Below the pieces are notes generated by a model. It made no database searches. It was not told the origin of the DNA and was given only the letters and a program-made list of their open reading frames with translations. Shown here piece after piece: positions 14,834-39,054 of a stretch of 64,000 nucleotides of DNA; the first letter of the stretch is position 1, and every line of letters starts with the position of its first letter. The stretch is taken from the NCBI RefSeq assembly GCF_058153355.1, contig NZ_CM177019.1; one strand, given 5' to 3'. The translations under genes and the position numbers were made by a program.

Positions 14834-15282
14834 TGAATCAGTCGCTTACCCTTGCCTTTTTGATTGCCGCAGGGATTGGTCTGGTCGTCCAGAACACGCT
14901 AATGGTGCGCATCACCCAGACCTCCTCTACCATTCTCATCGCCATGTTGCTGAACTCACTGGTAGGGATTGTGCTCTTTGTTTCTATTTTATGGTTTAAA
15001 CAAGGCATGGCGGGGTTTGGCGAACTGGTGTCCAGCGTACGCTGGTGGACACTTATACCCGGCTTGCTGGGATCTTTTTTTGTCTTCGCCAGTATCAGCG
15101 GATATCAGAATTTGGGAGCGGCGACAACTATTGCAGTACTGGTCGCCAGCCAGCTAATTGGCGGTCTGGTGCTGGATATCTTCCGCAGTCATGGCGTACC
15201 ACTACGGGCGTTGATCGGCCCAATTTGTGGCGCAATTTTACTTGTGGTTGGTGCCTGGCTGGTGGCCAGGCGCACATTTTAA
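14833..15282 (+). CDS. ydcZ: inner-membrane protein YdcZ (DMT-like)
   Basis: 149-aa hydrophobic ORF; start overlaps mnaT stop (ATGA). Confidence 0.8.
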   Translation: MNQSLTLAFLIAAGIGLVVQNTLMVRITQTSSTILIAMLLNSLVGIVLFVSILWFKQGMAGFGELVSSVRWWTLIPGLLGSFFVFASISGYQNLGAATTIAVLVASQLIGGLVLDIFRSHGVPLRALIGPICGAILLVVGAWLVARRTF

Positions 15283-15517
15283 TCAGAGGATGGTGCCGCC
15301 TTTGGTTAACTGTTCGTGGCGCGCTTCCATATCCTTCTTTATGCTTGCGACCGTGATGGGCGATCGCTGTGCGCAGACGCTGCTGCTGGGTGTAGCGATC
15401 TTCCCGACTTAACTCCGCGTCATCGCTCAGGGCGATTAATAATTCGTTCATATGGGCAATGACGCTCTCTTCAATCGCGGCATCCACGCGCGCGATGACT
15501 TCATCCAGATGCGACAT
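15128..15517 (-). pseudogene. ydcY: ydcY with +1 frameshift giving altered, extended C-terminus
   Basis: First 61 codons match YdcY (MSHLDEVIARVDAAIEES...HGRKHKE); after an extra C at about 15333 the frame changes. The alternative frame reads DMEARHEQLTKGGTIL-stop, which is the expected YdcY C-terminus (77 aa in K-12, recalled from memory). Confidence 0.6.
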
Positions 15518-15602
15518 ACTTTCTCCTTAGCCACTTGTGAAATTTATCGATTCATCCAAATGATATAAGTCTGCGTGGTGCCGTCAAGCCAGTGCGTAAG
15601 AT

Positions 15603-15776
15603 TTAAAACAGTGAAAACAACAGCGCCACCGGGAAACTCATCGGCCATGTTGCCCCCACCAGAAAGGCGCTTAAGAAACGGATGCGTTTCTTATCGTGAG
15701 AAAGAAACCAGGTGATAAGAAATGCGATTGCTGCCATAACCGCATAAAAAACAAGCATGTGTTGATAGAGAGACAT
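15603..15776 (-). CDS. ortT: orphan toxin OrtT (YdcX), small membrane protein
   Basis: Track ORF trimmed to MSLYQHMLVFYAVMAAIAFLITWFLSHDKKRIRFLSAFLVGATWPMSFPVALLFSLF (57 aa). Confidence 0.8.
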   Translation of the reverse strand: MSLYQHMLVFYAVMAAIAFLITWFLSHDKKRIRFLSAFLVGATWPMSFPVALLFSLF

Positions 15777-15970
15777 GTACGGGCGTCCAGCCAGATGAAT
15801 AAAACGCGCGCAAATATGCGTCATATCTTGACGTGCATCAAGTTTTTTCACCAGTTTGAGAAAAAATCATCAAACAGCAACTTGCCCTTATCCATCTTCA
15901 GAATGAGTATTATTGCGGATTTTCTTAACCCGTACTATACACATAGGGGCAATGATAAAAGGTGGCAAAA

Positions 15971-16066
15971 ATGAATGTTTCCAGTAGAACTGTAGTACTG
16001 ATAAATGTCTTTGCTGCTGTTGGTTTGTTTACTCTTATCTCTATGAGATTTGGCTGGTTTATTTGA
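15971..16066 (+). CDS. yncL: small membrane protein YncL (31 aa)
   Basis: Found by manual translation (below 60-aa track cutoff): MNVSSRTVVLINVFAAVGLFTLISMRFGWFI-stop. Confidence 0.75.
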   Translation: MNVSSRTVVLINVFAAVGLFTLISMRFGWFI

Positions 16067-16088
16067 TGTAGTGATTTTGCACGCAGCA

Positions 16089-16122
16089 CGTACTGTCAGA
16101 GAAATCAACTCTCTGACAGTAC
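16089..16122. terminator. strong hairpin between yncL and patD (bidirectional terminator)
   Basis: CGTACTGTCAGAG-aaatcaa-CTCTGACAGTACG 13-bp perfect stem. Confidence 0.6.
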
Positions 16123-16162
16123 GCAAGATCTTCTCATACTCTTACGATCTGCAATATTATCC

Positions 16163-17587
16163 TTAATGCTTAACCATGACGTGGCGGACGACGGTGTAAT
16201 CCTCCAGCCCATAAAGTGACATATCCTTGCCGTAACCAGAAAGTTTCTGCCCACCGTGCGGCATTTCACTTACCAGCATGAAATGGGTATTGACCCAGGT
16301 ACAACCATATTGCAGCCGTGCGCTGACGCGATGCGCCCTGCCCACATCTTTCGTCCATACCGAAGATGCAAGTCCGTACTGGCTGTCATTCGCCCAGTTC
16401 ACCACCTGTTCTTCATTGTCAAAGGCCGTCACGCTCACCACCGGACCAAATACCTCTTTTTGCACGATGGCATCGTCCTGTAACGCGCCAGCCAGCAGCG
16501 TAGGCGCGTAGTAATAACCATTACCCTTGCGCTTTTCACCACCGGTGATCACTTTGATGTGCCCTGTCTCTTTCGCCTCTTCTACCGCCTTGCTGACACG
16601 TTCGAGATGTGCCAGCGAACTTAACGGTCCAAGCTCTGTGGACTCGTCATCCGGCGCACCCGATTTTAACGTTGCCACTGCAGCACCGAGTTTTTCCACC
16701 AGCGTATCGTAAATACCTTTTTGCGCGTAGATCCGACAAGCCGCAGTACAATCCTGTCCGGCATTGTAATAGCCAAAAGTACGAACACCTTCGACCACTG
16801 CTTCAATATCAGCATCATCAAAAACAATCACTGGCGCTTTGCCACCAAGTTCCATATGAGTACGCTTAATAGACGGCGCTGTATGGCTGATGATGTGCTC
16901 GCCGGTGGCGATAGAGCCCGTCAGCGACACCATCCGCACTTTGGGATGTCCGGTCAGCGGATCGCCCACTGTTTTGCCTCTGCCAAACAGCACATTAATC
17001 ACGCCAGCCGGGAAGATATCTTTCGCCAGTTCAGCCAGCTTCAACGCTGTCAGCGGCGTAATTTCTGATGGTTTAAGCACTACGCAGTTCCCTGCCGCCA
17101 GCGCCGGAGCCAGTTTCCACGCGGCCATCATCAGCGGATAATTCCACGGTGCGATAGAAGCCACGACCCCCAACGGATCCCGACGGATCATTGAAGTATG
17201 ACCTTCAAGGTATTCGCCGGCCGCCAGACCATTGAGGCAGCGCGCCGCCCCGGCGAAAAAGCGAAAGACATCGACAATCGCCGGAATTTCATCATTGAAC
17301 GCACTATGCAGCGGTTTGCCACAATTACGGGACTCCAGTTCGGCAAAAACCTGACCATTTTCTTCAATAACATCGGCCAGTTTCAGCAGGCATTCCGCAC
17401 GCGCTTTCGGCGTGGTTTGCCCCCATTCGGCAAATGCTGCATCTGCCGCGCGAACAGCAGCATCCACCTGCTCTGCGGATGCCTCGGCAATCTCCAGTAA
17501 AACGTCCCCCGTTGCCGGATTATAGACAGGCTGTTTTTCCCCTTCGCCGCTAACCAGTTCTCCGTTAATCAGTAACTTATGTTGCAT
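16163..17587 (-). CDS. patD: gamma-aminobutyraldehyde dehydrogenase
   Basis: 474-aa aldehyde dehydrogenase (catalytic Cys in GQDCTAAC context, ELGGKAP Glu motif); last gene of ydcSTUV-patD cluster. Confidence 0.9.

Positions 17588-38850: not shown

Positions 38851-39054
<204 letters not shown>

Follow-up and report, generated by a model that had tools for sequence, protein, structure and literature searches.

Precise steady-state RNA 3′ ends have been described directly past stable stem-loops that are not followed by U-tracts (Dar and Sorek, 2018, NAR 46:6797). Transcripts of this class are terminated by Rho downstream and then trimmed by exonucleases, and their rut sites lie just past the structure (Dar and Sorek, 2018). 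Here we examine an unannotated palindrome beside two small membrane protein genes, ortT and yncL, and propose that it is probably a 3′ stem-loop of this kind.

OrtT is an orphan toxin that damages the membrane, causes growth arrest when expressed, makes ATP levels fall and is induced by the stringent response and by heat (PMC4344625; Islam, Benedik and Wood, 2015). It is not neutralised by YdcY, by GhoS, by the intergenic RNAs of either flanking region or by a genomic library (PMC4344625). In a Pantoea strain, ortT was reported on a plasmid, where it affects fitness (PMC11467524).

YncL is induced by minimal medium and heat shock, and cells that produce it show membrane depolarisation, a condensed nucleoid and lower viability (PMC12542507). 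The protein is cleaved by RseP in vivo, and yncL mRNA is a partner of RprA and KilS in RNA-interactome data. The Salmonella orthologue was first catalogued as the sRNA STnc1110, and its expression requires sigma-S (PMC5437024).

The hokB/sokB type I locus is alike in that it encodes a small hydrophobic peptide that depolarises the membrane. It differs from ortT and yncL in its antisense RNA antitoxin, as no such RNA was found here. YncL is not an obligatory partner of OrtT, since most genera that carry ortT are without yncL; for the same reason, YncL is unlikely to be a missing OrtT antitoxin.

Gene layout

We analysed a 64,000-nucleotide stretch of E. coli DNA (the window), in which the region of interest corresponds to K-12 b1441-b1448 in reversed orientation (Table 1). 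About 1.1 kb around ortT and yncL has a match in 5,415 of 5,426 complete E. coli genomes (95-99.5% identity), and RefSeq annotates ydcY, ortT, yncL and patD over this region in genomes that are 99% identical. ortT and yncL are divergent and separated by 194 bp (15777-15970), which agrees with the spacing of about 190 bp given in a first-pass annotation of this DNA, and an 85-bp spacer separates ortT from ydcY downstream of it. The two genes are independent, divergently transcribed single-gene units in the standard E. coli ydcY-ortT / yncL / patD arrangement. Their products are small membrane proteins that each lower the membrane potential when made. The first-pass annotation had also counted three small membrane-toxin-like genes in the window by including hokB, and hokB is indeed present.

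Table 1. Positions of the genes and elements discussed, in window coordinates.
Feature	Position	Strand	Basis or remark
ortT (ydcX, b1445), 57-aa orphan membrane toxin of the GhoT/OrtT family	15603..15776	-	100% identity to K-12 OrtT
FNR box TTGATGCACGTCAA	15828..15841	-	matches the consensus at 9 of 10 positions; centred some 58 nt 5′ of the ortT start codon
Putative yncL promoter: -35 TTGCGG (15913-15918), 17-nt spacer, C at -13 (15935), -10 TATACA (15936-15941)	15913..15941	+	
yncL Shine-Dalgarno sequence AGGTGG, 5 nt 5′ of the ATG	15960..15965	+	GGTGG invariant in the alignment
yncL (b4598), 31-aa stress-response small membrane protein	15971..16066	+	K-12 YncL with F13V
14-bp perfect stem with 7-nt loop, 22 nt past the yncL stop codon	16089..16123	+	predicted protective 3′ stem-loop of yncL mRNA
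Tract of 52 nt, poor in G and rich in C/U (4 G, 14 C, 19 T), candidate rut site	16124..16175	+	composition and conserved motif
Equivalent of the K-12 mature yncL RNA 3′ end	16126	+	third nucleotide past the stem (...GUACG-CAA); base-by-base coordinate transfer
patD (ydcW), gamma-aminobutyraldehyde dehydrogenase	16163..17587	-	convergent with yncL
hokB	38905-39051	+	100% identical

The OrtT protein encoded here matches Pfam PF10753 (Toxin_GhoT_OrtT) over model positions 1-55 of 55 (96.9 bits, cut-off 22.1). Together with its identity to K-12 b1445 and the published work on that protein (PMC4344625), this match bears out the description of the gene in the first-pass annotation as a 57-aa orphan membrane toxin. 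The gene lies in the same context as in K-12, with 194 bp upstream and 85 bp downstream before ydcY. Two bases in its leader (15825 and 15827), just downstream of the FNR box, differ from K-12. We rejected an 82-aa product extended in frame from a GTG at 15851: 66 of 80 related loci have a stop codon within the added segment, and the 57-aa OrtT is thus the conserved product. No ghoS-like or other partner open reading frame is conserved beside ortT in the 80 loci.

The neighbouring ydcY shows features of its own. A sigma-70-like promoter match (TTGACG-16-TATCAT, 10 of 12 positions) occurs at 15560-15587 on the minus strand, inside the ortT-ydcY spacer. This match is consistent with a separate ydcY promoter, as the OrtT paper states. 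No terminator-like site was found in the spacer between ortT and ydcY. At the convergent ydcZ/ydcY junction, a GC-rich hairpin (GTGCCTGGCTGGTGGCCAGGCGC, 15251-15273) lies within the 3′ end of ydcZ and coincides with the published K-12 primary 3′ end of ydcY (1517918+).

The ydcY gene itself (15284-15517, minus strand) has an extra C at 15333 relative to K-12 (ATATCCTTC vs ATATCTTC). The frame is lost after about codon 61, leaving a 129-aa open reading frame that runs to 15128 and overlaps the end of ydcZ, and the Pfam DUF2526 match covers only model positions 1-63 of 77. The exact 69-nt stretch at the frameshift occurs in none of the 5,426 complete E. coli genomes. Either the strain carries a private pseudogenising mutation or the extra C is a sequencing error.

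The yncL gene and its putative promoter

YncL matches the NCBIfam equivalog NF000537 over model positions 1-30 of 30 (72.5 bits, cut-off 35). Its alignment to b4598 shows the single difference F13V, at a position where other Escherichia, Citrobacter and Salmonella more often have valine or leucine. With the published characterisation (PMC12542507), these matches confirm that the open reading frame is the stress-induced membrane protein named in the first-pass annotation. Relative to the known gene, the length, position and strand are the same, and the promoter, the Shine-Dalgarno sequence and the 3′ hairpin are kept.

We aligned 23 sequences from four genera (Escherichia, Citrobacter, Salmonella and Intestinirhabdus). 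The putative -35 and -10 elements, the Shine-Dalgarno sequence and the open reading frame are conserved among them, and the promoter elements TATTGCGG and CGTACTATAC are invariant or nearly so. The elements resemble a promoter of the sigma-S/sigma-70 type, from which transcription would be expected to start near 15946-15948.

A single-copy perfect hairpin past yncL

The two arms of the palindrome (16089-16102 and 16110-16123) are 14 nt each, are 100% complementary and are 7 nt apart. The first-pass annotation had described a perfect 13-bp hairpin that ends at 16122. The hairpin is perfect, but its stem has 14 bp and ends at 16123, and the 13-bp stem is that of the K-12 allele. The RNA of the plus strand is predicted to fold with -23.6 kcal/mol (z = -8.0) and that of the minus strand with -26.7 kcal/mol (z = -6.7), and none of 200 shuffles was as stable.

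The hairpin is unannotated. Of 5,426 complete E. coli genomes, 5,411 carry it, in a single copy (median one place per genome). The allele of this window, with its AATCAAC loop and 14-bp stem, is found exactly in 949 E. coli genomes. The K-12 allele (ACT to GTG at 16108-16110, giving 13 bp and a 9-nt loop) is found exactly in 4,283. Other Escherichia species have a loop like that of the window, and the K-12 allele thus looks derived.

No T-run or U-tract follows the stem on either strand (the tail reads CAAGATCTTCTC), and a consensus terminator scan called no site at the hairpin. An Rfam scan of 15200-16400, with E-values up to 10, found no known RNA family, STnc1110 included, and returned as chance matches only rli32 (13.6 bits) and an HBV element.

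The hairpin follows yncL across genera

We scanned species-representative genomes for OrtT and obtained 80 loci from many enterobacterial genera. Among these loci, yncL adjoins ortT only in Escherichia, Citrobacter, Salmonella, Intestinirhabdus and, in a diverged form, Pluralibacter. ortT occurs without yncL in Enterobacter, Kosakonia, Lelliottia, Leclercia, Phytobacter, Pantoea, Mixta, Cedecea, Buttiauxella and others. The distribution of ortT is far wider than that of yncL, and only the Escherichia/Citrobacter/Salmonella group carries the two genes as a pair.

In the Escherichia, Citrobacter and Salmonella loci, every yncL gene is followed by a hairpin, which lies 21-33 nt past the stop codon. 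The arm sequence in this window is CGTACTGTCAGAGA. Other Escherichia have ACGCACTGTCAGAGA / TCTCTGACAGTGCGT and also ACATAC... / ...GTATGT, Citrobacter has TGGCAGAGAG / CTCTCTGCCA, and Salmonella has GGCGGGGAGG / CCTCTCCGCC. In the alignment, 11 of the 16 stem pairs have changed on both sides, among 23 sequences that are related and hold only a handful of independent compensatory events. The number of paired cells, the number of double changes and the covariation score each exceeded all 500 shuffles and all slid controls. Counts of G·U against A·C pairs, which bear on which strand's RNA is selected, had few informative cells. Loop length varies from 3 to 9 nt across clades, which argues against a protein operator of fixed geometry.

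Two observations connect the structure with yncL. First, several Citrobacter species retain the hairpin and the motif GATCTTCCCAC although the gene convergent with yncL is not patD but, for instance, one of AraC type. Second, in genera without yncL, patD is followed 9-13 nt past its stop by unrelated GC-rich hairpins. The hairpin thus stays with yncL in the absence of patD, and patD without yncL has other hairpins, from which we conclude that the structure belongs to yncL. On this sequence evidence, the hairpin appears to be a conserved, covarying, yncL-linked element. What our analysis adds is the comparative evidence and the assignment to a known class. The two genes, the RNA 3′ end, the Rho region, the FNR site and the listing as an excludon had all been made public before.

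Transcript ends point to a probable protective stem-loop

The transcript data used here all come from K-12, in which the hairpin allele differs in its loop (13-bp stem, 9-nt loop). In Term-seq, a 3′ end with a very strong signal maps to 1517039 of the yncL strand (minus in K-12) and is listed three times in supplementary file 1, where each growth condition has its own tab; two of the scores given there are 75,265 and 536,300 (Adams et al., 2021, PMC7815308). The same source places a region of Rho termination at 1516753(-), on the yncL strand and antisense within patD, with a score of 16.6 (p = 5e-21) that is based on 800-nt windows and does not imply that every yncL transcript passes through the hairpin (PMC7815308). 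This region corresponds to about position 16412, some 290 nt downstream of 16126. The PMC7815308 entries listed include no 3′ end on the patD strand at the hairpin, and the TERMITe supplements list no 3′ end for this site.

The tract between the stem and the Rho region is also conserved in part. The motif GATCTTCYCAC (16127-16137), which holds a Dam GATC site, is conserved in both Escherichia and Citrobacter, with or without patD as a neighbour, and we consider it part of a candidate rut site. A second block (AAATTATCCTTAAT, 16152-16170), likewise past the yncL 3′ end, is kept in the same two genera even without adjacent patD.

The hairpin resembles the class of Dar and Sorek (2018) in its stability, its lack of a U-tract, the precise RNA end, the C-rich, G-poor tract and the probable Rho-dependent read-through beyond it. 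It differs from that class in the unusual length and perfection of its stem (14 bp). The stable stem without a U-tract, the 3′ end at +3, the downstream Rho region and the G-poor tract are together in keeping with this class. On this basis we interpret the palindrome, with a probability of about 0.7, as a 3′ stem-loop that protects a Rho-terminated yncL mRNA.

The proposed mechanism would run as follows. Transcription of yncL would start near 15947, at the conserved sigma-S/sigma-70-like promoter. The polymerase would pass the 31-codon open reading frame and the hairpin and continue into patD in the antisense direction. Rho would load on the G-poor, C/U-rich RNA just past the hairpin and terminate transcription a few hundred nucleotides further on. 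Exonucleases acting 3′ to 5′ would then trim the RNA back to the 14-bp stem. The stem would halt trimming 3 nt past its base, and the product would be a stable yncL transcript of about 180 nt. In this scheme we infer that the RNA is trimmed, that the tract is a rut site, and that transcription begins at the promoter and start site given, and we assume that the K-12 data hold for this strain. Our literature search found no experiment with PNPase, RNase II or other exonucleases, or with Rho, on yncL specifically.

Alternative readings of the hairpin

The most plausible alternative, which we nevertheless consider unlikely, is a bidirectional intrinsic terminator that serves both yncL and the ydcSTUV-patD operon, and whose patD-strand side shields yncL and the co-oriented ortT. 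As in intrinsic and bidirectional terminators generally, the hairpin lies between convergent genes (stop codons at 16066 and 16163), has a strong GC-containing fold and is very stable on both strands. An outer helix (GAUUUUGC/GCAAGAUC) would also place UUCUC beside the base of the stem. At the orthologous Salmonella site, a T-run (CTATTTTTTC) replaces the GATCTTCYCAC block, which suggests intrinsic termination there.

Several observations argue against such a terminator in this window. The U-tract is absent on both strands, and the consensus scan called no terminator. Intrinsic release usually leaves 7-9 nt past the stem. The mapped end at +3 is hard to square with direct intrinsic release of this kind, although partial release at the hairpin itself is possible. 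The published data point to strong Rho-dependent read-through downstream on the yncL strand, where Rho would be needed as it is not at an intrinsic terminator. The PMC7815308 entries listed for the patD strand show no 3′ end at the hairpin. Finally, the cross-genus linkage of the hairpin is to yncL and not to patD.

A related idea, which we consider unlikely, is that the hairpin and the C/U-rich motif act together as a barrier in both directions, with its main effect on the patD strand. The barrier would block ydcSTUV-patD read-through, which would otherwise run antisense over yncL and then in the sense direction into ortT. If this were true, OrtT would be controlled by transcriptional isolation together with the conserved FNR box, with no antitoxin. 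In a weaker variant, YncL and OrtT could be functionally coupled as a co-induced, divergent pair of membrane-depolarising stress proteins.

It is improbable that the hairpin is a processing site for RNase III (or RNase E), in or near the double-stranded overlap of patD and yncL, with the 3′ end as a cleavage product. Such a site would be in keeping with the output of ExcludonFinder, which gives patD-yncL as a convergent pair with overlapping transcripts (an excludon) in 50% or more of 58 transcriptomes, and the 14-bp perfect helix nears the length of an RNase III substrate. The level of yncL RNA is also altered in RNase E/III mutants on tiling arrays, with confirmation by northern blot, but the text of that paper names neither the RNase responsible nor the direction of the change. 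The mapped 3′ end lies outside the helix, at +3, and the stem is kept in Citrobacter species that have another convergent neighbour; both observations weigh against processing of this kind.

That the palindrome acts as DNA, either as the operator of a dimeric regulator or as a repeated or mobile element such as a REP, is very improbable: as an inverted repeat it is perfect, and a DNA palindrome too would be kept by compensatory changes, but its arm spacing (3-9 nt) and its arm sequence differ between genera in a way that fixed geometry would not tolerate, its one copy per genome makes no repeat family (we rejected a REP, which would need many copies), it lies at 3′ ends and not at a promoter, an abundant RNA ends directly past it, and it has no Rfam match.

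These comparisons leave the protective 3′ stem-loop as our preferred reading, and they bear on the suggestion in the first-pass annotation that the palindrome likely insulates patD. That suggestion is right only in part. The hairpin is part of the yncL unit, to which it is linked across genera, and marks the yncL 3′ end in K-12. We do not regard it as primarily a patD insulator, and published data indicate that it is Rho, and not the hairpin, that limits transcription into patD. The exclusion of yncL transcription from antisense patD depends, as these data indicate, on Rho further downstream.

A conserved FNR box upstream of ortT

The ortT upstream region carries a second conserved element. 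An FNR box that matches at least 9 of 10 consensus positions is present in 64 of the 80 ortT loci, which span many genera, and is perfect in 35; the background rate is about 1%. In the loci that have it, the box always lies 54-60 nt from the ortT ATG. The K-12 box was reported as an FNR ChIP-chip target without an assigned role (PMC1802558). In anaerobic nitrate/NO profiling of strain CFT073, ydcX was 11.85-fold up (PMC5320621).

The box overlaps the likely -35 element of ortT (TTGAT-N17-CATATT). This overlap suggests that FNR represses ortT, which encodes a toxin without an antitoxin. The same conserved block could also be read as a sigma-32-type promoter (CTTGAT...CGCATAT).

A weak K-12 Term-seq 3′ end (score 848) maps to the ortT leader at about position 15808 on the minus strand, 32 nt upstream of the ATG. 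It lies at GCGCATATTTGCGCGCG followed by TTTTATT, and has an intrinsic terminator score of 3.18 and a Rho score of 0.5. This end could reflect a leader attenuator or be caused by promoter-bound RNA polymerase. We did not retain the attenuator, as the signal is weak and the promoter and FNR box better explain the local conservation.

Implications

The useful outcome for yncL is a corrected reading of an unannotated palindrome, as a probable yncL 3′ stem-loop in a Rho-dependent context and not as a patD insulator. The hairpin would serve as a clear illustration of the Dar and Sorek class, with little import beyond annotation. For ortT, the combination of a toxin that has no antitoxin with a deeply conserved FNR box on its promoter offers a testable handle on how the toxin may be silenced.
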